This document shows positions 5,674-30,329 of a DNA stretch of 45,062 nucleotides, in pieces. Position numbers and translations under genes: made by a program. The number at the start of each line of letters is the position of its first letter. The first letter of the stretch is position 1. Under the pieces are notes generated by a model. That model saw only the letters and a program-made list of their open reading frames with translations. It had not been told where the DNA came from and made no database searches. This stretch comes from Veterinaerplatzvirus T145P1. Location: sequence record OZ035765.1; one strand, 5' to 3'.

Positions 5674-6618
5674 ATGGCCATTAAATTTGATGCAGAACAA
5701 GCAAAAATCACCGCTCACCTCGAGCAAATGGGCGTAGAGAAAGCAGATGCCGCTGGTATCTGGACTGTTAAGCAACTGACCGCCAATCTGGCACGAGCTT
5801 ACGAAAAAGAATATGCAGACAACTCCGTTGTTAATATCTTCCCTGTGACCAATGAAATCCCTGGTCATGCGAAATATTTCGAATATCCAGAATTTGACGG
5901 CGTTGGCATTGCTCAGATTATCGCCGATTACTCTGACGACTTGCCGCTGGTTGATGCGTTTATGACCGAGAAACAGGGTAAAGTGTTCCGCTTTGGTAAC
6001 GCGTTCCTGATCTCCACTGACGAAATCAAAGCAGGTGCGGCAACTGGTCAGCCACTGTCGGCTCGCAAACAGGCTCTGGCATTCGAAGCGCATGATAACC
6101 TGCTGGATAAACTGGTATGGTCAGGCTCTACACCACACGGAATTCCTAGCGTGTTCAATCATCCGAACATCAACAACGTTGTTTCTGGTGGTGCGTGGAG
6201 CTCTGCATCTGCCGCCATGACTGATATTACCGCACTTATTGATGCAATCGAGACTGCGACTAATGGCACTCACACCGCAACTGATATCTTGCTGCCTGCC
6301 TCCGCTCGCCGCCTGATGCAAGAACTGGTGCCGAATACATCTATCAGCTACGCCCAGCTGTTCGCTACCAATAACTCTGGTATCACTCTGCGTTATCTTC
6401 AGTTCCTGGATAACTACGACGGAGCAGGCGGTAAAGCAGCATTGGCGTTTGAAAAGAATCCTCTCAACCTTTCGATTGAGATCCCGGAAGCGACCAATGT
6501 ACTTCCAGGACAGCCTAAGGATTTGCACATCCGCTACCCTGTTACCTCCAAAGCAACAGGATTGATTTTATATCGCCCTCTGACGGTGGCCGTAATGAAA
6601 GGTATCACCTTCGCGTGA
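5674..6618 (+). CDS. major capsid protein
   Basis: 314 aa; own sigma70-like promoter (TTGCGT-16-TATAAT), strong RBS and flanking terminators indicate very high expression. Confidence 0.65.
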   Translation: MAIKFDAEQAKITAHLEQMGVEKADAAGIWTVKQLTANLARAYEKEYADNSVVNIFPVTNEIPGHAKYFEYPEFDGVGIAQIIADYSDDLPLVDAFMTEKQGKVFRFGNAFLISTDEIKAGAATGQPLSARKQALAFEAHDNLLDKLVWSGSTPHGIPSVFNHPNINNVVSGGAWSSASAAMTDITALIDAIETATNGTHTATDILLPASARRLMQELVPNTSISYAQLFATNNSGITLRYLQFLDNYDGAGGKAALAFEKNPLNLSIEIPEATNVLPGQPKDLHIRYPVTSKATGLILYRPLTVAVMKGITFA

Positions 6619-6624
6619 TAAATC

Positions 6625-6647
6625 GCCCTCTTCGGAGGGCTTTTTTT
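6625..6647 (+). terminator. rho-independent terminator (after major capsid gene)
   Basis: GCCCTC-TTCG-GAGGGC followed by T7. Confidence 0.7.
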
Positions 6648-6710
6648 ACGTCTGTACCAAATGGATTTGTTGGGTTATAATCACTCAATCAGATAACAAA
6701 GGAGACAAAA

Positions 6711-6956
6711 ATGATTCGTTTAGAACACACTGGCGCTTGCCTTATCGTTTACAGGGGTGAGAAATATTTGCCTGGTGACACTTTCGAGGTTGATGCAATT
6801 TGCGACGGACTCAAGCGTTTAATCGCAGAGGGTAAACTCACCATTGAGGGTGACGCCAAAGCAACCAAACAAATCGCGCAAGAAGTTGTTAGCAAGAAAA
6901 AGCGCAGAGAACCGAAAACCATCTCCGAGGCTGAGACTGGTAACGAGTACAAATAA
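6711..6956 (+). CDS. hypothetical protein
   Basis: 81 aa, RBS AAAGGAG, terminator downstream. Confidence 0.45.
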   Translation: MIRLEHTGACLIVYRGEKYLPGDTFEVDAICDGLKRLIAEGKLTIEGDAKATKQIAQEVVSKKKRREPKTISEAETGNEYK

Positions 6957-15836: not shown

Positions 15837-15885
15837 TTAGTGTAGAATGGCACAAATGATCAAAACAAACATGAGGCTTTGTGAT

Positions 15886-18800
15886 ATGGCTGAAGATATT
15901 AAGATTTATGGTGCTAAGGGTGGTAGCCAGAAGCAGCACCAACCAGTGGAACAAGAAGACAACCTGATTTCATTAAACAAGGTCAAGGTATTACTTGCGG
16001 TTGCTGACGGCGAGGTTGACCCTAACTTCTCAATGAAAGATTTATACCTTGCTGACGTTCCGGTGCAAAACCAGGATGGTAGCTACAACTATGATGGTGT
16101 TCGCGCTGAGTTCCGTGCTGGCACGCAGTATCAGGACTATATCGCCGGGCTTGACGGTGCTAACTCAGAGATTCAGGCATCCAGAGAAATCAAGAACGAT
16201 ACCCCGTACATCATTGCGGTTAACAATACTCAGCTTTCAGCAATTCGAGTTAAGCTATTTTGGCCTCGACTGGTTAAGCAAGAAAACAACGGAGACCTGA
16301 ACGGAACAACTTGCGAGTACGCAATTGACCTTTCTGTTAATGGTGGTGCTTACCAGGAATACACTCGCGGAGTTGCTAACGGCAAGACAACTACAGGTTA
16401 CGACCGAAGCATTCGCGTAAACCTTCCGGCAGAGTTTGATAGTGCGCTTGTTCGCATCCGTAAGATTACAGCTGACTCAACGAGCAGCACACTGGTTAAC
16501 GGAATGCAGATTACAACCTATCAGGAAGTAATCGACGCCAAATTCCGCTACCCGCTTACGGCTCTGGTCTATGTTGAGTTTGGTTCTGACTTGTTCCCTA
16601 ACGGCATCCCGACAATCTCAATAAAGAAGCGTTGGAAGCTAATTCAGGTACCGACAAACTACGACCCGGAGACAAGGACTTACAGCGGGACATGGAATGG
16701 CTTATTCAAGATGGCATGGTCGAATAACCCGGCATGGGTTCTCTATGACCTGGTGACAAACCGACGCTATGGGCTTGACCAGCGAGAGTTGGGTGTAGAG
16801 ATTGATAAATGGGGCTTGTATGAAGCCGCGCAATTCTGTGACCAGATGGTTCCAGATGGTAAGGGTGGTTTAGAGCCGCGTTACCTTTGCGATATGGTTG
16901 TGCAAAACAAGGTTGAGGCCTACACGCTAATTCGTGATATCTGCTCAATCTTCCGTGGTCTGACTTTCTATGACGGTGAAAAGATTGGTATCGTGGTTGA
17001 TAAGCCTCGCAACCCATCTTACATCTTCACCAATGATAACGTTGTAAACGGATTGTTCAGTCGAACCTTTGCCAGTGATAAAAGCCTTTACACCACGGCA
17101 AACGTCCAGTTTGATGATGTAGAGAACAACTATCAACAGGATGTTGAGCCGGTATTTGAATTAGAGGCAACTCGTCGTTTTGGATTTAACCCTGTAGATT
17201 TAACTGCGATTGGATGCACTCGCAGAAGTGAAGCAAACAGACGTGGCAGATGGCTCCTGAAAACAAACCTGAGAAGCGAAACTATCAGCTTCACTACTGG
17301 GTTGGAAGGTATGATTCCGATGATTGGCGAGGTAATTGCGGTCAATGACGCTGCATGGTCTAGCAACTATCAGTTAAACCTTTCCGGTCGTATTGAGTCA
17401 GTTCAGGGGTTGCAGGTTTTTACCCCTTTTAAAGTTGACGCAGCGCCTGGTGACAGAATTCTTCTGAACAAGCCAGACGGAAGTCCAGAGGCAAGAACTA
17501 TTGCCAGCGTTTCGGAGGATGGAAGAACAATCAACCTTAACACTGCTTTTAGTTTTGTAGCTCAACCTGACACTGTTTTCGCAATCGATAAGGATAATCT
17601 CGCGCTTCAACAGTATGTTGTGACCGGGATTCAAAAAGCAGATTCTGATGGCTCTGATTCATTCCAGTATACGATTACCGCAGTAGAGTATGACCCGAAC
17701 AAGTATGATGAGATTGATTATGGTGTAAACATTGTTGACCGCCCAACATCAATTGTTGAGCCTGATAGATTGTCGCCACCTGAGAACTTAACAGTATCAA
17801 GCTACAGTAAGGTTGTTCAAGGGTTGTCAGTTGAGACGATGGTTATCGGATGGGATAAAGCTCCATACGCTAAAACATACAATGTTCAGTGGAGGAAAGA
17901 AAATGGCAACTGGATTAACGTACCCAGAACGGCAAGTACAGAGGTTGATATCGAAGGTATTTACGCAGGAATCTATGACGTTAGGGTTCGCAGCGTATCA
18001 GATACTGAAAACGTGTCTTCCTGGTCTGGCATTGTAACCGTATCGCTAACTGGCAAGATTGGTCGCCCATCGGCACCTACTGTTATCACGGCATCAACAG
18101 ATGAGGTATTTGGCATCCGTGTTAAGTGGGGTTTCCCTGAGGGTTCTGGTGACACTGCTTACACTGAACTTCAGCAGGTCCCTGATAATGGTGACGGCAC
18201 TTACAATCCTGATAACGCAAGTTTGCTGACGTTACTGCCTTATCCAGCCTATGAATACTGGCACACGCCAATTCAGCCGGGTAAGGTCATCTGGTATCGC
18301 GCAAGATTGATTGACAGAATCGGCAATACCTCTGATTGGTCTTATTTCGCTAGAGGTATGAGTACTGACGACGCCAACATCATCAACGATTATATCAAGG
18401 TTGATATTGAAGGCTCGGAGGGTTTTAAATACCTAGAGCAGAATGCGATTCAAAAGAACCAGGACATTCAGAATCAAGCCGAGGCAATCATCGAGAACGC
18501 GCTGGCTAATGATGGCGATGTTCGTCGCATGACTAAGGAGAACGGCAAGCGTAAGGCTGAATATGTTCAGGCTGTGAATCTCATAGCTGATGAAACTCAG
18601 GCGCGTGTAGAGGCTCTTACGCAGCTTAAAGCGCAGATTGATGATGAGGTTGTTTCATCGATTACAGAAGTTCAGACTGCATTAGCAACAGAGACAGAAG
18701 CAAGAACTACTGCGGATACGGCTCTATCAGCAAGACTTGGTGAAAACGAGGCTGCACTAAACCAGAAGCTGGACGCTTTTTCTAACGCCACATCGACTGG

Positions 18801-19272
18801 TGTACAGTATGGGATTAGTCTTGGCCTGAAATACAACGGACAGACTTATTCATCCGGCATGAGTATGGAGCTTGTTGGCACTGGTGGGAATGTTCGCAGT
18901 CAGTTCATCTTTGACGCAAACAGATTCGCAATCAGTAACGGCATTGGTTCTGGTTCCGGTCAGTGGCAACTCCCATTCGTTGTAGAGAATGGAAACGTAA
19001 TAATCCAAAGCGCAGTAATCGGCGATGGCTCAATTACTAACGCTAAGATTGGTAATATAATTTCATCAAATGATTATGTGGCAGGCTCTCAGGGATGGGC
19101 GATACTGAAAAGTGGTGCGTCAGAGTTCAATAACACAACTGTAAGGGGCAATCTTTACGCTAACAATGGTAACTTTGCTTTTAACGGAACCAATAACACG
19201 GTTCAGATTAACAATAACGGAATCACTGTAAACTTACCGAACGGAGGAAGAGTGGTAGTTGGAGTGTGGTAA
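15886..19272 (+). CDS. tail tip / host specificity protein (lambda J-like)
   Basis: Start moved to ATG 15886 (GAGG RBS; the track extension overlaps the terminator); 1128 aa. Confidence 0.85.
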   Translation: MAEDIKIYGAKGGSQKQHQPVEQEDNLISLNKVKVLLAVADGEVDPNFSMKDLYLADVPVQNQDGSYNYDGVRAEFRAGTQYQDYIAGLDGANSEIQASREIKNDTPYIIAVNNTQLSAIRVKLFWPRLVKQENNGDLNGTTCEYAIDLSVNGGAYQEYTRGVANGKTTTGYDRSIRVNLPAEFDSALVRIRKITADSTSSTLVNGMQITTYQEVIDAKFRYPLTALVYVEFGSDLFPNGIPTISIKKRWKLIQVPTNYDPETRTYSGTWNGLFKMAWSNNPAWVLYDLVTNRRYGLDQRELGVEIDKWGLYEAAQFCDQMVPDGKGGLEPRYLCDMVVQNKVEAYTLIRDICSIFRGLTFYDGEKIGIVVDKPRNPSYIFTNDNVVNGLFSRTFASDKSLYTTANVQFDDVENNYQQDVEPVFELEATRRFGFNPVDLTAIGCTRRSEANRRGRWLLKTNLRSETISFTTGLEGMIPMIGEVIAVNDAAWSSNYQLNLSGRIESVQGLQVFTPFKVDAAPGDRILLNKPDGSPEARTIASVSEDGRTINLNTAFSFVAQPDTVFAIDKDNLALQQYVVTGIQKADSDGSDSFQYTITAVEYDPNKYDEIDYGVNIVDRPTSIVEPDRLSPPENLTVSSYSKVVQGLSVETMVIGWDKAPYAKTYNVQWRKENGNWINVPRTASTEVDIEGIYAGIYDVRVRSVSDTENVSSWSGIVTVSLTGKIGRPSAPTVITASTDEVFGIRVKWGFPEGSGDTAYTELQQVPDNGDGTYNPDNASLLTLLPYPAYEYWHTPIQPGKVIWYRARLIDRIGNTSDWSYFARGMSTDDANIINDYIKVDIEGSEGFKYLEQNAIQKNQDIQNQAEAIIENALANDGDVRRMTKENGKRKAEYVQAVNLIADETQARVEALTQLKAQIDDEVVSSITEVQTALATETEARTTADTALSARLGENEAALNQKLDAFSNATSTGVQYGISLGLKYNGQTYSSGMSMELVGTGGNVRSQFIFDANRFAISNGIGSGSGQWQLPFVVENGNVIIQSAVIGDGSITNAKIGNIISSNDYVAGSQGWAILKSGASEFNNTTVRGNLYANNGNFAFNGTNNTVQINNNGITVNLPNGGRVVVGVW

Positions 19273-19277
19273 TAAAT

Positions 19278-19305
19278 AAAGCCCCTTAATTGGGGCTTTT
19301 CTTTT
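19278..19305. terminator. bidirectional terminator (J gene and convergent minus-strand operon)
   Basis: A-run, AGCCCC-TTAAT-TGGGGCT, T-run. Confidence 0.65.
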
Positions 19306-20275
19306 AGTAGAAGTTTGGGATAAATGGAAGTGCCATTGATATGTTCGTGTCGAAAGGAAACTGAGCGCCTGTCTGAGTTGAGTAGTTACCTATTACAGAT
19401 CCAGGAACAGCCCTAACGGAGCCTCCAGACATGCAAACACCCTTGTATCGTAAGTTGTTATACCCTCCGGTAACTCTAGTTGTAGCGCCGCACCTAAGCA
19501 GCGGGAAGAAACCACCATTTATTGACTGATATCCATTGCTTATTTGTATAAATCCACCAAGAACGAATGGGCGGCGAACACTTGAAAAAACAATCTGACC
19601 AGAACTATTTGACATTGTGAGTCCAGGCCCGGCCGGTGGTGGTTCATTCCTGAATATCACCAGCTGAACATGGGTACTTGCCGCAACATCATCTGTACCT
19701 CCGTAGGTTATATCCCTACACCATATTGTTGATCCATCTGATTCAAGTGATACGTTTGGATTATCCCACTTGCCGAATGGTATTCCGCTAACTGGTAGCG
19801 ATGCTGCACCGTTAACCTGTATGCCCCCAACCCAGGCCGCAGACATTAGCCGCGAGTTGCTTGATATAGCAAGGAAATCAGTTGAGTTCTCAACAAGTAT
19901 TCCAGGACTTGATGAGGATGAAGCCGGTAGTATCTCAAAGCAATTACCAGCAAAGTCAATTATTCGACCATTAGCACCATTGAAGTTGCTGATAGTTATC
20001 CTGCCAGTTCCGTCATTTACCTTTTGAAACCCGTTCATGTAATAAACTTCGGGTATAACATCGTAAGCGTCAACGTGGACTGCCTTCGTTGGTAGGCAGA
20101 AAGCCGTAGAGCCAGGAAACATTGTCAATCCAAAATCCCACGAGATTGCCGGGGTTGAAAGTCCATTGGTATTTATTGATCCAGTCACAGCAGGTGCCCT
20201 TAATCCTGCCGTGATTTCCATCGCTGGTCTTCCGTCATTGAGGTCAATCAATATACCCTGCGGCATTATTTCCAC
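19304..20275 (-). CDS. hypothetical beta-rich protein coupled to cor-like gene
   Basis: 323 aa, Gly/Asn/Ser-rich; start overlaps the stop of the upstream lipoprotein gene. Confidence 0.5.
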
Positions 20276-20511
20276 TCCTTACTGCCGTGATCTGCAACAG
20301 AACCGCCGTAACCGCCGCCAGATTTGCTTTCAATGCCAGCGTAGCGAATATCAACCTCACCAGCCGGAACAACTACACCGCCTTTCCACTTAGCTACGCA
20401 CACGCCGTTTGCTTGTGTTGCACACCACCCATCAGGTCGAGGACCAGAAGAACAACCTACTGTCATGATTACTGCCGCCGAGATGATTGCTGATTTGATG
20501 AAGTTAGTCAT
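20266..20511 (-). CDS. cor: Cor-like outer-membrane lipoprotein (superinfection exclusion, putative)
   Basis: Start moved to ATG at 20511 (AAGGAA RBS); signal peptide plus lipobox-like TVGC; located beside the J gene as cor is in FhuA-using phages. Confidence 0.5.
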
Positions 20512-20550
20512 TTTGTATTCCTTATTAAGTTGTTTCGTTTTGATGTAGTA

Positions 20551-20594
20551 ATAATACAACCGTCAGTGCGGAATGTCTTTAGCTATTCGTGCTA
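20551..20594 (-). promoter_or_regulatory. conserved promoter/operator module (cor operon)
   Basis: Minus strand TAGCACGAATAGCTA, 23 bp, TATTAT, leader TACTACATCAAAACGA. Confidence 0.45.
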
Positions 20595-23646: not shown

Positions 23647-24072
23647 ATGCACGTAATTACTGGTCAGATTCGACGCGCTCCATTCACTAAAGAAGGTCAT
23701 AATGCTAATGGTACCTGGAAAATGTTTGCGGTTGATTTGAGTGAGCGATACAAAGATAAAGATGGTCAGACTCAGTATAGTAACTATCGCGCAGTCTTCT
23801 TCGCGAAAGAGTCAATGTTAGATTGGTATAATGAAGCTTTTCAAGAGGGTAAAGTTGTTAGCGTTAGCGCAGAGACTCTTTCTGTTGATGTTAGAGATAA
23901 AGATGGCAAGACTTACGTTACTGTCAACATGAACAATCCTAGACTTGAGTTTAGTCAGCGCGGTGAAGGTGGCGTGCAGCAGCAACCTAGACAACAGCAA
24001 CAAGCACAACAGCAACAACAGAATCAACAGCCAAAACAGCAAAAGCAATTCGAAGATGATATTCCTTTCTAA
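23647..24072 (+). CDS. ssb: single-stranded DNA-binding protein
   Basis: OB-fold-like N-terminus, Gln-rich linker, C-terminal acidic tail ...FEDDIPF. Confidence 0.85.
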   Translation: MHVITGQIRRAPFTKEGHNANGTWKMFAVDLSERYKDKDGQTQYSNYRAVFFAKESMLDWYNEAFQEGKVVSVSAETLSVDVRDKDGKTYVTVNMNNPRLEFSQRGEGGVQQQPRQQQQAQQQQQNQQPKQQKQFEDDIPF

Positions 24073-24076
24073 AGAT

Positions 24077-24101
24077 AAGGCCCCTTTTGGGGCCTTTTTT
24101 A
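24077..24101. terminator. bidirectional terminator (ssb and convergent tail fibre gene)
   Basis: AAGGCCCC-TTTT-GGGGCCTT followed by T-run. Confidence 0.65.
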
Positions 24102-26684
24102 TTAACCTATTTTAGTGTAAGTCCATTGGTATGTTGCAGCTCCCTTGGCAGTTATCCCGACAGTTCTTCCACTTACATCCATTGAAGTGAAAGCGCCAGT
24201 TTTTGTAATTGTTATTGATGATGTGGAACCATCAAAAAGTACGTCAGCAATTACACTATAGTTAGGTCCAGCACCAGTAACCCAGGTCGAAACCTTGTAT
24301 AAACCAGCGTTGTTTGGCAACTCAAAAAGACCAGTTGAAACATTCGCCTGAACAGCCATCGCGCCCTTTCCGGTGTACACACCGTCAGTTTTAAGACCTA
24401 ATGATGAATATGTTTGCTTATAGCCACCAATGATGGCACCACCCATAGGTTCAGTAAACCAGTTCACATTACCCTGACTAACAACAGATATCGCTGGAGA
24501 CCCCCCTTTAGCTGACTGAAACCTACCGCTTAAAATGTCAATTCTAGATGCTGAGTCCTGGGCGTAGATAGTTACAGGATACCCACCAGAACCAGTGTAA
24601 ACCAAGCCGTTATCATTAATGTCATCTTCAGACGAGTCAATGATTACATGGGAAGTTCCAGACGCCTTGATGAACGAAACAACACCGCTAGAACCAGCAC
24701 CTGTTGTTCTAACTTCATTCTTCCATGATGTTAGGCCTGAAATTCTGCCATTTGAGTTATTAAACCTAATCAGGCAACAATCTTGCGATCCGTTGGTGTC
24801 AATAATGTTACCTTCAACGTCCATCCCTAGTATGTTTACGCTATGGCTGTTGATGAAGTTAATCCCAGCACCACCGTAAGAACCAGATGTTGATGATATA
24901 TTACTGGCATCCATTGCGCAGTTAATCATTGTAACGCTCATTACCGAACCAAATTCATAAGGTGAAATGCAATCTGATGCGTAACAAGTCTCAAGCAATA
25001 TTGTCGTTCCTGTCGCCTTTATGAATCCAGTCCTGCAATTCCTGGCCCAAACATTCTGTAGCTTAGTCTGGTATGTTCCAGTGGTGTCCGTGTAGCAACC
25101 CCATGCTCCATGGACTGTGCAATCTTTGATACATGAATTTTCTAGCCCTGTTGCAGAACCAACATTAGAAACGAAGTTAAATGCTATCTTTTGATCATTC
25201 CCTGATGCTGAGGTAGGTGTAGTGCCTGGGTTATAAAAAATGTAAAGTCCCTCAATAAACACTTGATACATTCTTATGTTTTGCGCATCACCCTGAACCA
25301 GGGCGAATAGGTTTATGTTCCCATCAACTGAGATAAATGTTTGCGCCCTGTTAATTTGGTTTGTTCCCTCGCCAATAATTCTTGTACTGTTGCCAATCCT
25401 CACCGTCCTGTTAATGAACATAAAACCTTTTGGTATGTATACAGTTTTACCGGTATTAACTGCCGCCTGAAGCGCAACTGCGTCAAGTGACTCGTTAAGG
25501 TTTGATGCAAATGGATAAACAAACCGCGCATCCTCAATTGTCGAGAATTTAGATGAAAGAGGAACTAAAGTACCATTGTTTGTAGCACCAAAATCCATGA
25601 CGTTAACAAAGTCACCAAGTTTACTATCCTTACTCCTTTCTACAAATGAGGCCAATGTAGATTTGTAATTCATCGAACTGAATTGTGATTGAGCCTCTGT
25701 CTTTGAATAAACATCTGATCTTGGGTAAACCTCTGATTTTGAATAAACATCAAGCAAACCCCTAGCTCTTTCAGCAGTAGCGCCGCCAACCGACTCCCCG
25801 CCTTCAACCATAATGTATTCGCGTAAGTAGAAGTTTCTTGATCCTTTAGCGCCCGTCATCCTGAGGTGAGTAGCCCTATATGATGAATCAGAATTCAATG
25901 CCGGATATATATCAATCTCATAAGAGCCTTGAGCTCCACTTGTGCCCCTAACACATATAAAAAGCGTAGCGTTGGCTGTAGTGTATGTCGCAGCTAGTGA
26001 TGCTGGAACGTTTGTCATGTTAGATACTACAACTCGATAATTACCACCACTTTTAAATTCAACTTGCTGCCAATCCAATGATGGCATAGCTATTGTCGAT
26101 GTGCTTGCGATACCCTCATTGGCTAGAGTAACCAAAGTTGCAGCATCACCAGCGTTGGCAATGACATTAACTGTGTTGTTGTATGCCTCCTGCGCACTAC
26201 TTGCGCTTGATTCAGCCTGAGCCTTGCTTGTAGCGGCAGCTTGCTGGCTGGCAGATGCAGCCGATTCGCTTGAAGCCGCATTTGTTTCGCTTGCCTTCGC
26301 CTCATCAACTAATCGTTGTAACTTATCGAAATCAAAATCACCAGATTCAGCCAACTCAACAAGTGACGCAACCTCAGTTTCACGTGACTGATAGTAACGA
26401 AGAGTTTCCGCAACATCCTGAGCTAGCCCCTGAACGGTAATTCCATCATGCGCAAGGATAGCGTAACCAGTTCCAGCAGGAACAGTTTCGGAGTTAGGGT
26501 TGTAAACATTAATCTGCGTATCGCTGATAATTTCTGAGATGGTGTAAATCTGTACTGGTTCAGTTTTAAATACAATGGTTGCACCTACACGAATCAGTGT
26601 AAGAGGTGCTTTCCATGTTGTCCCGACGCCAGTCACCTCACCACTTGCTGCTAGAGAAGCTGTTCCTGAGTCATAAATTGCCAT
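24102..26684 (-). CDS. tail fibre / tailspike with beta-helix-like domain
   Basis: Probable ATG start at 26684; N-terminal anchor-like region, Ala/Ser-rich coiled coil, then repetitive G/N/S/T-rich region resembling a parallel beta-helix. Confidence 0.75.
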   Translation of the reverse strand: MAIYDSGTASLAASGEVTGVGTTWKAPLTLIRVGATIVFKTEPVQIYTISEIISDTQINVYNPNSETVPAGTGYAILAHDGITVQGLAQDVAETLRYYQSRETEVASLVELAESGDFDFDKLQRLVDEAKASETNAASSESAASASQQAAATSKAQAESSASSAQEAYNNTVNVIANAGDAATLVTLANEGIASTSTIAMPSLDWQQVEFKSGGNYRVVVSNMTNVPASLAATYTTANATLFICVRGTSGAQGSYEIDIYPALNSDSSYRATHLRMTGAKGSRNFYLREYIMVEGGESVGGATAERARGLLDVYSKSEVYPRSDVYSKTEAQSQFSSMNYKSTLASFVERSKDSKLGDFVNVMDFGATNNGTLVPLSSKFSTIEDARFVYPFASNLNESLDAVALQAAVNTGKTVYIPKGFMFINRTVRIGNSTRIIGEGTNQINRAQTFISVDGNINLFALVQGDAQNIRMYQVFIEGLYIFYNPGTTPTSASGNDQKIAFNFVSNVGSATGLENSCIKDCTVHGAWGCYTDTTGTYQTKLQNVWARNCRTGFIKATGTTILLETCYASDCISPYEFGSVMSVTMINCAMDASNISSTSGSYGGAGINFINSHSVNILGMDVEGNIIDTNGSQDCCLIRFNNSNGRISGLTSWKNEVRTTGAGSSGVVSFIKASGTSHVIIDSSEDDINDNGLVYTGSGGYPVTIYAQDSASRIDILSGRFQSAKGGSPAISVVSQGNVNWFTEPMGGAIIGGYKQTYSSLGLKTDGVYTGKGAMAVQANVSTGLFELPNNAGLYKVSTWVTGAGPNYSVIADVLFDGSTSSITITKTGAFTSMDVSGRTVGITAKGAATYQWTYTKIG

Positions 26685-26705
26685 TGTGTAGAGTCTCCAT
26701 TTGTA

Positions 26706-26745
26706 AAATAGCACGAATTGCTAAAGTGGATTGTAGCATCTTTGA
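26706..26745 (-). promoter_or_regulatory. palindromic operator copy at tail fibre 5' end
   Basis: TAGCACGAATTGCTA lies between a TACAAT-like box and the fibre start; operator rather than promoter geometry. Confidence 0.35.
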
Positions 26746-26768
26746 GTCATAAAAAAACCTCCCGTAGG
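26742..26768 (-). terminator. rho-independent terminator after primase gene
   Basis: Minus strand CCTCC-TACG-GGAGG followed by T7. Confidence 0.6.
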
Positions 26769-26771
26769 AGG

Positions 26772-27698
26772 TTAGTCTAGCAATTCGCTTGCCTTGTATA
26801 TTCGCTTTCTTATGCCTGACTTGAAAAAATTATCATCATTTGGCATTACCACATCAAGATCGCGATCGTCAGCAACGGCGAGTAAATCAAAATCGTTGCG
26901 AGTACAAGCGATGCGTAACTTGTATTTTCTAAGCGAGTAAGCAACCATTTCCATGTTGTAGCTGGAGTAGCAAACAAGCACGCAGCGGTTGCCAGTAGCA
27001 ATGTGAACACGATAGCCGTCAATGAGATTATCGACCAGATAAGCGTACTCATCATCCTTAAAGGAACCAATAACAGCAACAGACTGGCGAGTATAATCTT
27101 TTGCAGCATAACTAACATCTCCCTCTTCATTGATAAACATTACATTACACATTTCTTCTGATATACCGTCATTATAAGCCATAAAACACGGTACTGCGTG
27201 TATCAGTTCGCCTGATTTTGTCCTGCCAACATCAAAACCAAACTCGCTATAGATGCCCTCGTATGTGCTGAGCGGAGTTGATTCCACTCTTTCCGTCCTT
27301 TCCATTATCTCTAAGCATCTTTCGTGGTCAATCTGAGCGCCCATTTTGTATGGTGATGTTCTTGAAGCTCTTTTGTTTGCTTTTGATATAACCTCTACTG
27401 GAACGAGATTCAGCCAATCACCAAGCGTATCTATTGTTTCACTATAACTCATTCCAGAACACTTCATTACCCAACCAACACCAGAATCATTTCCACACTG
27501 GTTGCATATTGCTGCGCCATTTCCCTTTTCTTGACCTAACTCATCAGTGAAGCGAAACCTATCCTTGCCAAAGCAGTAAGGGCACGGACCATGTTTCTTG
27601 CTGAGATTCTCCTTTGTCCATCCAAGATGCGATGAGTAGAACTCACTCCACATCCCTTTCATCTTGGCTATCACTTCGTTCTTATCATGTTGACTCAT
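26772..27698 (-). CDS. DNA primase (zinc-finger type, putative)
   Basis: Start moved to ATG 27698 (GGAGGT RBS); CPYC...CNQC zinc ribbon; acidic DxD-type motifs. Confidence 0.6.
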   Translation of the reverse strand: MSQHDKNEVIAKMKGMWSEFYSSHLGWTKENLSKKHGPCPYCFGKDRFRFTDELGQEKGNGAAICNQCGNDSGVGWVMKCSGMSYSETIDTLGDWLNLVPVEVISKANKRASRTSPYKMGAQIDHERCLEIMERTERVESTPLSTYEGIYSEFGFDVGRTKSGELIHAVPCFMAYNDGISEEMCNVMFINEEGDVSYAAKDYTRQSVAVIGSFKDDEYAYLVDNLIDGYRVHIATGNRCVLVCYSSYNMEMVAYSLRKYKLRIACTRNDFDLLAVADDRDLDVVMPNDDNFFKSGIRKRIYKASELLD

Positions 27699-27753: not shown

Positions 27754-28233
27754 TCAAATCGTGCTGTTTTGCTCTTTCTTCTTTTGGTTCTCTAATTTTA
27801 TCTTGCGCCATGAACGACACTCTGGCTTAGTGGCTAATTCAGCCTCAGTGACGACTCGCAGCATATGGCGCTTTTTGCACCGAAGTGTCAGCGGTTTCCC
27901 GTTGCCGTCGAATTGCAGGTCTGGTCGGCAGAATGTAGCGCGAAAACCTTCTCCATTTCGCTTATAGTAGTTGTGAGAAAGTTGAGCCCCACGCGCAGAA
28001 ATCATACCGCGCTTAAACCATTCTTCTACAGCCTGTGGTGTTACCTTTAACTGCTTTGCGATATTCGCCTTTGTGCCGAAGAAATCAAGAACTATCTCTA
28101 GCCGCGCGCGTAGCCCGGCTCTTACTTCATCTTTTAAAACATAGTAGCCTGAAGGTCGTTTACGTTGCTTTTTGTCTTCGGTGCGGATGGTTCCGTTATT
28201 GCCGTTAATTGTTCGCTTGTCGACTGTATTCAT
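27754..28233 (-). CDS. HTH DNA-binding protein (Cro/YdaS-like), candidate early regulator
   Basis: FGTKANIAKQLKVTPQAVEEWFKRG helix-turn-helix; own canonical sigma70 promoter; palindromic operator abuts its RBS. Confidence 0.55.
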   Translation of the reverse strand: MNTVDKRTINGNNGTIRTEDKKQRKRPSGYYVLKDEVRAGLRARLEIVLDFFGTKANIAKQLKVTPQAVEEWFKRGMISARGAQLSHNYYKRNGEGFRATFCRPDLQFDGNGKPLTLRCKKRHMLRVVTEAELATKPECRSWRKIKLENQKKKEQNSTI

Positions 28234-28246
28234 TTCATTACCTCAA

Positions 28247-28289
28247 TAGCATTTTTTGTTAAAAGTCATCCTGATTTGATGGTATTATT
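28247..28289 (+). promoter_or_regulatory. conserved promoter/operator module (helicase) overlapping HTH gene 5'UTR
   Basis: TAGCATTTTTTGTTA, 22 bp, TATTAT-like; same palindrome abuts the RBS of the divergent HTH gene. Confidence 0.45.
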
Positions 28290-28315
28290 GTACTCAATTA
28301 AACGCTACAAGACAA
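28287..28315 (-). promoter_or_regulatory. sigma70-like promoter for HTH regulator gene
   Basis: Minus strand TTGTCT, 17-bp spacer, TACAAT upstream of the 27754-28233 gene. Confidence 0.5.
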
Positions 28316-28334
28316 TTTTTATAGGAATTTAGAT

Positions 28335-30329
28335 ATGTTGCCTATCGAGAAGCTGGTTGCAAATTTCGATAAAGAAAGAATCAAACAGATTCAGAGAGAT
28401 TATCAGTTTGGCGAGATAACCCCTTACGAATTCCAGTGCGTAACATTTGATGCAATCGGGAAGGCTATTGGTAAGTATGAAGCGCCATTTATCGCTGACC
28501 TTTCAGTATCTGCGGGTAAGACAATCATTCTTGCCATGATTGGTAAGCGCATGGAGCAGCTTGGGCTTCCATATATGGTTCTCTCTCGCCAGTCAGAGAT
28601 TATCAGCCAGAACTCAGAAGAGCTTCGTAATTTCGGCATCCGTAATAGCGTCTATTGCGCTGGCCTTAACGTCAAATCAGTTTACTACCCAACTATAGTG
28701 GCCAGTGAGGGTACGGCAGCCAACGGCTTGTTTAAGGGGCTTGGTGACTATGTTCCGGCAGTTATCGCTATAGATGAGTGTCACATGGTCGATCACATGG
28801 ATATCGTGGAGGCTGAAGAGAATGAAGAAACATTTGAGCAAATGAGCACAAAGAAAGGCGATATGGTTTTTAAGGATGGCGTAAACACAGGATTGCTTGG
28901 TACTGGTCGTGCTCAGTACACGCTAATTATCACCGAGATGAAACGTCGTTGTCGTGAGAAGTACGGGCGTGAGCTTCGTATATTCGGTCTTACTGGCAGC
29001 CCGTATCGTAACAACGATCATATCGTCGTTAGCAACCCAAACATCCGTGGATTCTGGCGCAAAACAGTGATTCAGGTGCCAACAAATTATCTGGTTGATT
29101 TGGGCTTCGTGGTTCCTACTGTTTATGGTGAAGTTGGTGACCTGGGTTATGACCTTAGTGAGTTTGCGCCAGACGGAAGCGATGGCGTTAAAGACTTCAG
29201 CAAGAAAGAAATGGATGCAATGGCTGCAAAGATTCACGACAACCAATCAATGACCCAAAAGATAATGGGTTTTGTTGTGAAAATACTCGAGACTCGTAAC
29301 GCTGCATTGGTAACATGCGCTGGCAAACTCCATTGTGATGAGGCTGCTGCGGCACTACCAGATGGATACCCTTACGCCATCATCACAGACTCTACGGGAG
29401 AGAGGAAGCGCAGGGAGATTCTGGCTGATTGCCAGACAGGTAAGTACAAAATAATATTCCAGATTGGTTGTCTTACTACGGGCGTAAACCAGCCGCTGTG
29501 GGATACTAGCGTCATACTACGCAAGATTGGCAGCCTAACGCTTATGATTCAGCTTCTTGGTAGGGGGATGCGCAAACTTAAGAGATCTCATATTGATGCT
29601 GGTTTTCATAAAGAAGATCACCTTGTGCTGGATTTTGCTGGCGCACTTGATGATATGGCTGAGCTTTACTTTGACCCAATTATTGAAGAGATTCAGGCTG
29701 AGAAGTTTAAATCCTCAAGAAAAGGTGGCGATGAGGTTCGTCAGTGTCCGCAATGTGGATATGAAAATTCCCCATTCGCTCGTCGCTGTAGCAATAAGAT
29801 TGATGGCGTTAGATGCGATCACTTCTTTCAGTTCACAATTTGCGAAGACATTACCGACGCGCAAACTAAATCGGTAATTAAAAAGGGTTGTGGCGCTCGC
29901 AATGACATAGCAGCAAAGGTTTGCAGGGAATGCGGCGAGATGCTTAAAGACCCAAATGCTAACCTGACTGGCAAAATGTATCGTCGTGGTGATTACCTTC
30001 GTGTTTATGATTTTCAAGTTGGGTTAAGTAAGAATCAGACAGGCATTGTAGTTAAGTACAATATAATGGCTCATAACGGAGAGAGATTTAACGCTTGGGA
30101 GTTCTTTAATCCAGAATCAGACCATCGAGTTTGCAGTGTGCTCTGGAAGAACTTTTGCTTAGCTCATATTGATAATCGCACGGAAGCGGCACGAATTGGC
30201 AGGCTTAAAAATGCCAGAATGATTATGACTAACGTAGATAAGTTCCGTGCGCCAGTTCAGGTTACGCATCGCCGGAATGCAAAAGGAAAGGACGTGATAG
30301 CGTTTAAGAATTTTGGAGAATTATTATGA
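28335..30329 (+). CDS. SF2 DEAD/DEAH-box helicase
   Basis: Walker A VSAGKT, DECH box (AIDECHMV), C-terminal Cys-rich zinc-ribbon-like region. Confidence 0.8.
   Translation: MLPIEKLVANFDKERIKQIQRDYQFGEITPYEFQCVTFDAIGKAIGKYEAPFIADLSVSAGKTIILAMIGKRMEQLGLPYMVLSRQSEIISQNSEELRNFGIRNSVYCAGLNVKSVYYPTIVASEGTAANGLFKGLGDYVPAVIAIDECHMVDHMDIVEAEENEETFEQMSTKKGDMVFKDGVNTGLLGTGRAQYTLIITEMKRRCREKYGRELRIFGLTGSPYRNNDHIVVSNPNIRGFWRKTVIQVPTNYLVDLGFVVPTVYGEVGDLGYDLSEFAPDGSDGVKDFSKKEMDAMAAKIHDNQSMTQKIMGFVVKILETRNAALVTCAGKLHCDEAAAALPDGYPYAIITDSTGERKRREILADCQTGKYKIIFQIGCLTTGVNQPLWDTSVILRKIGSLTLMIQLLGRGMRKLKRSHIDAGFHKEDHLVLDFAGALDDMAELYFDPIIEEIQAEKFKSSRKGGDEVRQCPQCGYENSPFARRCSNKIDGVRCDHFFQFTICEDITDAQTKSVIKKGCGARNDIAAKVCRECGEMLKDPNANLTGKMYRRGDYLRVYDFQVGLSKNQTGIVVKYNIMAHNGERFNAWEFFNPESDHRVCSVLWKNFCLAHIDNRTEAARIGRLKNARMIMTNVDKFRAPVQVTHRRNAKGKDVIAFKNFGELL

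Follow-up and report, generated by a model that had tools for sequence, protein, structure and literature searches.

The lateral tail fibre of T1-like phage T145_P4 probably joins a conserved anchor to a mobile beta-helix module for host O-antigen under a promoter of its own

Lateral tail fibres of the Drexlerviridae (T1 gp26, Rtp50, JeanPiccard Bas02_0034, SU57_00050 and that of ETEP102) share a locus, a strand and an N-terminal anchor with the fibre described here, and their C-terminal module is variable, as it is for this fibre. [quoted passage not shown] For the coliphage relatives the substrate is undefined, whereas for the T145_P4 fibre we propose O2 from host data.

Two groups of solved structures come closest. 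Among the Klebsiella Drexlerviridae, the Webervirus depolymerases Depo32 (7VZ3/7VYV) and 7LZJ have a homologous anchor and neck (residues 1-198), are trimeric, carry a beta-helix body and are encoded at the same family locus; however, their bodies have no detectable sequence relation to the body studied here, and they cut the Klebsiella K2 capsule, whereas the fibre of an E. coli phage most likely targets O-antigen. The O-antigen tailspikes of Sf6, P22 and HK620 and of the Pseudomonas phages phi297 (gp61) and LKA1 (gp49) share the same fold and, when searched with a family profile, sequence similarity in the neck or cap that precedes the helix (4RU5, E 9e-24; 4RU4, 5e-21; Sf6, 4e-7), and a P22-type head-binding domain is fused to a homologue of our module in E. 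coli prophages. Those tailspikes, though, serve podovirus attachment rather than as siphovirus side fibres, and their catalytic residues are not alignable with ours. We consider it probable that the T145_P4 protein is a lateral tail fibre (tailspike) in which a conserved anchor and neck carry a mobile beta-helix module that binds, and probably cleaves, O-antigen (most likely O2), and that it has its own promoter with a palindrome.

The fibre gene at its family locus

The window analysed (45,062 nucleotides) is the complete genome of T145_P4 (Drexlerviridae, Veterinaerplatzvirus), a virulent T1-like siphovirus. The fibre coding sequence (24102..26684, minus strand) runs for 860 codons plus stop from an ATG at 26684, 10 nt downstream of a Shine-Dalgarno sequence GGAG (26695..26698, minus strand); counted from an in-frame GTG, the open reading frame spans 24102..26714 and 870 residues. 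It converges with ssb (23647-24072, plus strand; 141 aa; phrog_44, E 1e-27), which is annotated as such at the matching gene in SU57 and JeanPiccard, across a 29-nt gap that holds a GC-rich hairpin (24077..24096). This hairpin scores as a terminator for ssb, while on the minus strand only TTAAAAGG follows it; in SU57 it is annotated for both strands. A first-pass annotation, made from the sequence alone, had described an 860-aa minus-strand gene convergent with ssb and far from the tail module, and had taken it for a separately encoded tail fibre or tailspike. Both statements hold: the product matches phrog_24092 (E 3e-126) and nine more PHROG tail-fibre families, with matches spanning residues 1-368, and its counterparts in JeanPiccard, SU57 and Rtp carry the annotation lateral tail fiber or tail spike. 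In all, 959 phage records match the fibre, most of them via residues 1 to ~350 only, and the gene is 99.8-99.9% identical to those of the T145 sister phages.

Its distance from the tail module, ~4.8 kb past the J-like gene and behind the recombination module, is ordinary, this being the fixed place of the fibre gene in all Drexlerviridae. When the window is compared with SU57, JeanPiccard, Rtp and T1, the fibre has the recombination/ssb genes on one side, primase on the other and the strand opposite to ssb, and the order ssb, fibre, primase, regulator, helicase is kept throughout. For a T1-like coliphage such a side tail fibre (tailspike) is ordinary, and its kind is well known. The lambda J-like tip protein that had been noted alongside it is also present, as a central fibre gene (15847..19272, plus strand) with the Pfam domains FNIII-A_GpJ, Phage-tail_3 and Phage_Tail_Tip; it would form the second arm of host recognition. 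Downstream of J lie genes for a DUF6453 protein and a phage lipoprotein (19304..20559, minus strand), at a locus that in Drexlerviridae carries terminal-receptor specificity and superinfection exclusion (PMC8594841). The DUF6453 protein is 88.5% identical to its counterpart in the O157 phage AHP42, a comparison in which no link to a named receptor was found.

A modular fibre with a predicted beta-helix

All domains of the fibre are encoded on the minus strand. Residues 1-80 (26445..26684) form a beta domain, conserved throughout Drexlerviridae, at the N-terminal end of the virion anchor, and residues 81-197 (26094..26444) an Ala/Ser/Gln-rich helical neck, presumably a trimeric coiled coil. Two Klebsiella phage depolymerases of solved structure, 7LZJ and 7VZ3, have an N-terminus that matches residues 1-198 (E 8e-42, or 6e-46 with the family profile), in keeping with the anchor-like N-terminus proposed in the first pass, and the first ~200 residues are the conserved anchor and neck of the family. 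The Ala/Ser/Gln-rich stretch noted there is equally real (42% Ala+Ser+Gln over residues 81-197); helices are predicted at 84-113, 119-133, 139-177 and 181-189, modelled as a monomer with low confidence, and the neck aligns with that of Depo32/7LZJ. Because the Depo32 and 7LZJ entries are trimeric (three chains each), we infer a homotrimeric side fibre suspended from the tail tip. A small beta 'knob' domain of the fibre shaft (residues 198-292; 25809..26093) and a poorly modelled linker (residues 293-356; 25617..25808; pLDDT 26-39) follow.

The remainder of the protein had been read as a long Gly/Asn/Ser/Thr-rich region with the look of a right-handed parallel beta-helix. Its composition agrees (Gly+Asn+Ser+Thr make up 39-42% of residues 357-860), and structure prediction bore out the fold: AF2 models residues 357-745 (24450..25616) as a right-handed parallel beta-helix of depolymerase type, with pLDDT ~90 across the helix, followed by a C-terminal beta domain that forms the tip (residues 746-860; 24105..24449; strands within 750-858, pLDDT ~80-90). 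The helix would be the receptor-binding and putative glycanase body, and the tip domain is kept in all homologues.

Judged by where its sequence recurs, the receptor-binding module of ~515 residues is a mobile cassette. SU57 shares residues 345-860 at ~91% identity with a different middle region, so that homology resumes at about residue 345, near the end of the linker; both SU57 and T145_P1, whose module is ~92% identical, have a PF18668 module in the middle (neck plus knob), unlike T145_P4. JeanPiccard is 85% identical over the module and 79% over the whole fibre, while the T1 fibre has an unrelated C-terminus. From about residue 345 onwards the module is common to SU57, Guernseyvirinae-like phages and P22-like tailspikes, and in phages of other types it follows at least four further N-terminal adaptors. 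Homologues at 46-61% identity begin with PF18668 or PF09008 (P22 head-binding), or are 751-aa tail proteins of E. coli prophages, and one sits after the tail genes of a 44-kb siphovirus encoding PolA and SNF2. At the DNA level, nine complete RefSeq E. coli genomes match the module, at 65% identity; ETEC strain names of module-carrying genomes were not found in PMC11267873. One module protein cluster happens to be named 'Escherichia coli O2', an anecdotal observation.

Polysaccharide binding, cleavage and the likely substrate

The term depolymerase is applied to this fibre only by virtue of its predicted fold. The beta-helix might instead bind polysaccharide reversibly and without catalysis, as an adhesin-type beta-helix like T5 pb1 or the O-antigen receptor-binding proteins of cluster I Webervirus. 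Such a role would accord with the lack of Pfam matches above threshold (PF12708, Pect-lyase_RHGA_epim, reaches 17.3 bits against a cut-off of 27) and with catalytic residues that are not assignable by comparison with known structures: in the PDB the family profile finds chains that match the anchor and the pre-helix neck only, so that none could be transferred, and for the body no solved structure shows a relation in sequence. Non-enzymatic O-antigen-binding proteins do occur at the same locus in Webervirus (PMC13463945), but they are described as having no depolymerase-type domain, whereas the T145_P4 fibre has one, and the characterised phage tailspikes among its fold matches are mostly enzymes. 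Against a pure adhesin also stand about a dozen Asp and Glu residues of the helix that are at least 80% conserved among homologues with identities as low as 40% (the conserved acidic residues of the fibre are E439, E515, D533, E565, D592, D622, E624, D683, E686, D687 and D710), as well as the haloed plaques of SU57 (PMC7718038), whose module is 91% identical; halos are an indirect sign, however, reported as typical for T1-like phages generally. We regard a purely adhesive fibre as unlikely, and favour a beta-helix that would bind and probably cleave the O-antigen of the host, most likely O2.

This choice of substrate draws on host range. The isolation host T145 is O2:H6 K1 and the SU57 host ECOR-57 is O2:H1 K7, sharing O2 but not the capsule. 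In published host-range data 12 of ~403 strains give T145_P4 a score of 2 or higher: 6/6 O2:H6 strains (among them the capsule-gene-negative NILS62), two more of type O2, three that are rough or O-negative, and one of type O18. The association of lysis with O2 (Fisher p ~4e-8 to 2e-6) suffers from clonal confounding: the O2:H6 strains, all six, are related and have one common outer-membrane-protein variant profile. O2 strains from phylogroup D and from clade I are weakly lysed by T145_P1 too, and the T145 phages also plate on rough MG1655 and BL21. Many other O2 strains, on the other hand, are barely or not lysed (ST73 O2:H1 K7 including ECOR-57, several ST95, and ST79 O2:H4), and the isolation on K-12 of JeanPiccard, with its 85%-identical module, counts against the O2 link. 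Because T145_P4 plates on 6/6 O2:H6 strains and on rough strains, the O2 O-antigen is the best substrate candidate and K1 an unlikely one; where the first pass had left 'capsule or O-antigen' open, the evidence favours the latter.

A depolymerase for the K1 (polysialic acid) capsule of T145, rather than for O-antigen, would nonetheless fit the K1 type of that host and the weak lysis (scores 1-3) that T145_P3, P4 and P5 produce on many K1 strains of O1, O7 and O45, in step with the score of the K1-specific podovirus T145_P2. Such weak scores, however, are what carry-over of T145_P2 in lysates from the same host would give, and the K1 pattern is absent for T145_P1 despite its ~92%-identical module. 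Moreover, NILS62 (O2:H6) is lysed while it has no ABC capsule genes, many K1 strains other than O2 score 0 (ECOR-24, 35, 38, 40 and 41; IAI36, 53, 56 and 61), and a K7 strain supports growth of SU57, whose module is 91% identical. The K1 depolymerases known so far belong to the beta-propeller endosialidases (preprint 10.1101/2023.11.22.567924), and this fibre does not; a Pfam search of the fibre gave no match to the K1-endosialidase beta-propeller domain PF12217. K1 as the main substrate is highly improbable and, given NILS62, the K1 strains scoring 0, T145_P1 and SU57, was dropped.

With O2 O-antigen as the most likely target, the virion would make its way across the LPS layer, bringing the J-like tip complex to its outer-membrane protein receptor, and the fibre would be dispensable on rough strains. 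The O2 polysaccharide is neutral. Should it be the substrate, a glycoside hydrolase would be expected, such as an endorhamnosidase of the Sf6 and P22 type, rather than a lyase. The fibre itself adds little new biology, being one more case of a modular side fibre by which T1-like phages determine their host range; its practical value lies in a testable assignment. The ~515-residue cassette, which recurs in siphoviruses, in P22-like prophages and on further tailspike scaffolds, probably serves to recognise E. coli O2, a serogroup of major importance among extraintestinal and avian pathogens. Were activity confirmed, the cassette could be used in phage engineering, serotyping reagents and anti-virulence enzymes.

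Promoter, palindrome and candidate regulator

Just upstream of the fibre promoter, an intrinsic terminator (26756..26773, minus strand; annotated in SU57) closes the regulator-primase unit and would insulate the fibre gene from it. The fibre would be transcribed from its own extended -10 promoter, TGcTACAAT without a -35 (26730..26738, minus strand; conserved in SU57, JeanPiccard and Rtp), with the 15-bp palindrome TAGCAATTCGTGCTA (26709..26723) over the predicted start, at about +1 to +15. The palindrome begins 6 nt past TGcTACAAT and 24 nt ahead of the fibre ATG, so that the operator rather than activator position seen in the first pass, between a TACAAT-like box and the start codon, is confirmed: the site lies at or after the predicted start of a recognisable promoter, unlike the other copies. 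T1 is laid out alike, with the identical 15-mer at the same place although the flanks have diverged and aTGaTAAAAT in place of the -10 element. Across the window TAGCAnnnnnTGCTA occurs 17 times with at most one mismatch, versus 1.84 expected and with 0/100 shuffles reaching 17; 14 other copies lie ~42 bp upstream of predicted transcription starts, and the regulator gene has a site past its own promoter as well. The candidate binder is a 159-aa helix-turn-helix protein (27754..28233, minus strand), encoded by the first gene of the fibre's minus-strand block and matching phrog_2856 'transcriptional regulator' (E 7e-83; counterpart annotation Rtp52/T1 gp23).

The arrangement resembles lambdoid Cro/CI-type systems in its 15-bp two-fold symmetric site near -42 at promoters without a -35 (class II), in the placement of sites downstream of the promoter at the regulator and fibre genes, and in a Cro-like helix-turn-helix whose Pfam P22_Cro match (26.9 bits) falls below the 30.2 cut-off. 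It differs in that T145_P4 is virulent, without a lysogeny switch, and in having 14-23 predicted site copies per genome. The candidate regulator may activate at least 14 promoters with a site at about -42, and limit or time the fibre promoter and its own. Extending this on the basis of site positions and conservation only, we suggest, tentatively and with more doubt than confidence, that T1-family phages, from T1 to Rtp-like members, control most of their transcription with a single 15-bp palindrome and a single small helix-turn-helix protein, by class II activation near -42 at 14-23 promoters without a -35 and by repression at the regulator and fibre promoters (site at or after the start), which would give the fibre a separate programme.

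An alternative is that the fibre copy acts as RNA, with a 5'-terminal stem-loop stabilising the fibre mRNA, instead of binding a protein as an operator. A start ~7 nt past TACAAT would indeed make the palindrome the first 15 nt of the mRNA, with a possible 5-bp stem, but that stem has little stability (-3.6 kcal/mol) and does no better than shuffled sequences (z -0.31 in the window and +0.12 in T1), and the 14 other functional-looking copies lie upstream of -10 boxes and would not be transcribed by their own promoters, which fits a DNA site. With its stem at z ~0 we consider the RNA role very unlikely and have set it aside in favour of an operator. Three further readings were rejected: the palindrome half TTGCTA as a -35 box would lie 21-23 nt from the -10, too long for sigma-70; a sigma-54-like element has the wrong GG/GC spacing (by inspection); and an antisense promoter at the fibre copy finds no TAnnnT 19-25 nt downstream on either strand.

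A search of the papers in the literature library consulted did not return the 15-mer in either orientation, PMC4070988 gives generic sigma-70 promoter counts only, and the SU57 authors doubted any transcription of the fibre gene; the conserved promoter-plus-palindrome arrangement looks undescribed. For basic biology it weighs more than the fibre, offering an easy way into the transcription programme of the T1 family, which has hardly been studied. If the palindrome does have the dual role suggested, expression of the host-range fibre would be separate from that of all other structural genes, and a promoter of its own would explain how a structural gene is expressed inside the replication block, behind a terminator.

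Locus and anatomy of the fibre

The fibre gene is a single long minus-strand ORF running from a GTG at 26714 to 24102, within which an ATG at 26684, 10 bases past a GGAG, opens a protein of 860 aa. It is convergent with ssb (23647-24072, 141 aa, phrog_44), and the 29-nt gap between the two genes holds a GC-rich hairpin. Upstream on the same strand lie the genes of a primase (Zn_Ribbon_Prim) and of a 159-aa helix-turn-helix protein (27754-28233), separated from the fibre ORF by an intrinsic terminator (26773-26756). The first-pass annotation had placed and described this gene correctly, including the convergent ssb and a lambda J-like gene, which we find at 15847-19272. Records under the name Veterinaerplatzvirus T145P1 match the fibre gene at 99.8-99.9% identity. 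Downstream of J, at 19304-20559 on the minus strand, are genes for a DUF6453 protein (PHROG 'membrane protein'; 88.5% identical to its counterpart in the O157-specific phage AHP42) and a phage lipoprotein; in Drexlerviridae this locus has been connected with the choice of terminal receptor and with superinfection exclusion.

SU57, JeanPiccard, Rtp and T1 share this arrangement in their annotations: recombination genes and ssb, then the fibre gene on the other strand, followed by primase, regulator and helicase. The label of the fibre gene varies between tail spike, lateral tail fiber and tail fiber; the Rtp record reads 'putative tail fiber with beta-helix fold; similarity to T1 gp26 limited to N-terminal region'. 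This is the Drexlerviridae lateral tail fibre locus of the BASEL paper, conserved only at its 5' end, whose authors proposed that the fibres touch O-antigen first and that the receptor-binding proteins associated with J then engage an outer-membrane protein, LptD in the case of JeanPiccard (PMC8594841). [quoted passage not shown] Given the family-wide locus and the published two-step model, the position far from the tail module and the dual receptor recognition suggested in the initial observations are traits of the family rather than peculiarities of the window. The finding is real and was correctly interpreted; what it concerns is the ordinary lateral tail fibre of an established phage family, and the phage itself has been deposited before.

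Across residues 1-198 the protein aligns with the N-terminal ends of two trimeric depolymerases of Klebsiella phages, 7LZJ and Depo32 (7VYV/7VZ3), with E-values of 8e-42 from the single sequence and 6e-46 from the family profile. Helices are predicted in residues 81-197, which are 42% Ala+Ser+Gln, and model quality is poor across residues 293-356. The beta-helix read from the sequence alone is borne out by structure prediction, in which residues 357-745 form a beta-rich body (pLDDT ~85-96) followed by a beta domain up to residue 860. The case for a depolymerase has limits. Pfam PF12708 scores 17.3 bits, below its gathering score of 27, and the family profile matches solved structures (phi297, LKA1, Sf6, CBA120 TSP3) only at the anchor and the neck/cap preceding the helix, so that catalytic residues are not transferable from them. 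About a dozen Asp/Glu residues of the helix are shared by 80% or more of homologues, and among the best fold matches are an epimerase and an adhesin that is not an enzyme. It is likely, though unproven, that the fibre beta-helix has enzymatic activity.

A mobile cassette and its candidate substrate

Residues 200-860 used as query retrieved 109 proteins. Full-length relatives (62-97% identity) sit on phage-sized contigs, and the last ~515 residues recur behind other adaptors at 46-61% identity: PF18668 (TSP1/gp66 N-terminal domain) is one such adaptor, PF09008 (P22 head-binding domain) is another, seen in a cluster of 122 E. coli prophage sequences, and further homologues are 751-aa prophage tail proteins of E. 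coli and E. marmotae. In a different phage family, a 44-kb siphovirus encoding PolA, a helicase of the SNF2 type and an Enc34-type ssb has a 664-aa version behind its tail genes. In SU57 and T145_P1, residues 1-~105 are kept at 92% and 345-860 at 91%, while neck and knob are replaced by a PF18668-containing segment. The swap spans window 25617-26400 (residues ~106-345) against 6316-6730 in SU57, the fibres being otherwise ~91% identical; those of SU57, T145_P1 and RobRod40 are 777 aa long, with the PF18668 segment in the neck/knob region.

T145_P4, whose complete 45,062-bp genome is the window, is a Drexlerviridae phage (Veterinaerplatzvirus) from sewage isolated on E. coli T145 (10.1101/2024.11.07.622273), a phylogroup B2, ST141 strain with O2:H6 antigens, K1 capsule and R1 core (preprint 10.1101/2023.11.22.567924, supplement). 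SU57 plaques have halos (PMC7718038). The isolation hosts of two phages whose modules are ~91% identical are both O2 but have different capsules: T145 is O2:H6 K1 and ECOR-57 is O2:H1 K7. According to the published matrix of interactions and the accompanying strain table, 12 of ~403 strains give T145_P4 a score of 2 or more: all six O2:H6 strains (T145, IAI51, IAI74, NILS54, MT1B1 and NILS62, the last without ABC-capsule genes), two other O2 K1 strains (IAI06, IAI69), the rough or O-negative ECOR-13, BL21 and BE, and one O18:K5 strain (IAI79). The O2 enrichment gives a Fisher p of ~4e-8 to 2e-6, phylogeny ignored, the range being set by the number of O2 strains assumed in the remainder of the table. 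Weak lysis by T145_P1, which has the same module, extends to O2 strains from phylogroup D and from clade I (ECOR-49, ECOR-50, NILS52, M863). The T145 phages plate on MG1655 and BL21 too, as expected if the fibre is needed on smooth strains only.

The alternative that the fibre is a K1 capsule depolymerase would draw on the weak scores that T145_P3, P4 and P5 reach on K1 strains with various O types. The values rise and fall with those of T145_P2, a podovirus specific for K1 that came from the same host, and T145_P1 has none of them in the published matrix; they may reflect carry-over in the lysates, or else a contribution from the neck/knob module, which is missing in T145_P1. A K1 depolymerase does not fit the lysis of NILS62, the many K1 strains not lysed, or the presence of the module in phages without a K1 lysis pattern. 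The best substrate candidate is the O2 O-antigen, to which we give only an even chance, because the O2:H6 strains are clonally related (sharing one outer-membrane-protein variant profile), many O2 strains, ECOR-57 among them, are not lysed, and the statistics are blind to phylogeny. The O2 repeat (rhamnose, GlcNAc, Fuc3NAc) is not known to contain a uronic acid; with none in the substrate, cleavage by a beta-elimination lyase would be ruled out and the enzyme should be a hydrolase. The O2 assignment for a widely shared receptor-binding cassette is worth carrying forward.

Promoter and palindrome

The interval between terminator and ATG reads gaTGcTACAATccacttTAGCAATTCGTGCTAttttacaaatGGAGactctacacaATG. 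It contains an extended -10 without a -35, and a 15-bp palindrome (26723-26709) that begins 6 bases past the -10, at about +1. The description of this copy as lying in operator rather than activator position is accurate as geometry; its function as an operator we infer. An RNA hairpin from the palindrome is weak and no better than shuffles, and the 15-mer was not found in a literature search. An obvious candidate for binding the palindrome is the 159-aa helix-turn-helix protein (phrog_2856), whose Cro-like motif scores below threshold. The authors of SU57 found no promoter at the fibre gene and questioned its transcription (PMC7718038).

Where 1.84 copies of the palindrome, TAGCAnnnnnTGCTA, would be expected in the window, there are 17, and the fibre-gene copy is the only intergenic one without a downstream -10 and with an upstream one. 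In 14 of the 17, a 5-6/6 match to TATAAT lies 21-23 nt downstream in one orientation, which places the palindrome at about -49 to -35 of promoters without a -35 box. These canonical 15-bp sites are at 2117, 9295, 20580, 22882, 28247, 30743, 31584, 37237, 38024, 39205, 40787, 42324, 42834 and 43701; their -10 boxes are strong, mostly TATAGT, and the sites themselves often touch or overlap the stop codon of the gene before. Two mismatched intragenic copies look like chance. The canonical layout recurs in T1, a phage from a different subfamily, with 23 copies, and together, judged by sequence, these sites look like a family-wide activator-dependent promoter type. The T1 fibre gene reads aTGaTAAAATcattgctTAGCAATTCGTGCTAtttacttAAGGAG...ATG, with the identical 15-mer in the same place and diverged flanks; this conserved promoter-operator layout within a family-wide palindrome-based promoter system also merits carrying forward.

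In the divergent gap (28234-28334) between the regulator (27754-28233) and helicase (28335-30329) genes, the palindrome at 28247-28261 lies ~42 bp upstream of the helicase start (about -42 of the helicase promoter) and also between the regulator's predicted promoter (TTGTCT 28315-28310 / TACAAT 28292-28287) and its ATG. T1 has the same arrangement, and the layout suggests that the regulator may control its own expression. A conserved initial transcribed sequence, TAC(C/T)(C/T)CATCGAAACGAAA, is absent at the fibre promoter and follows canonical -10 boxes at window 9295, 30743, 42834, 38024(-) and 20580(-), and at T1 1451, 2270, 6532 and 39977.
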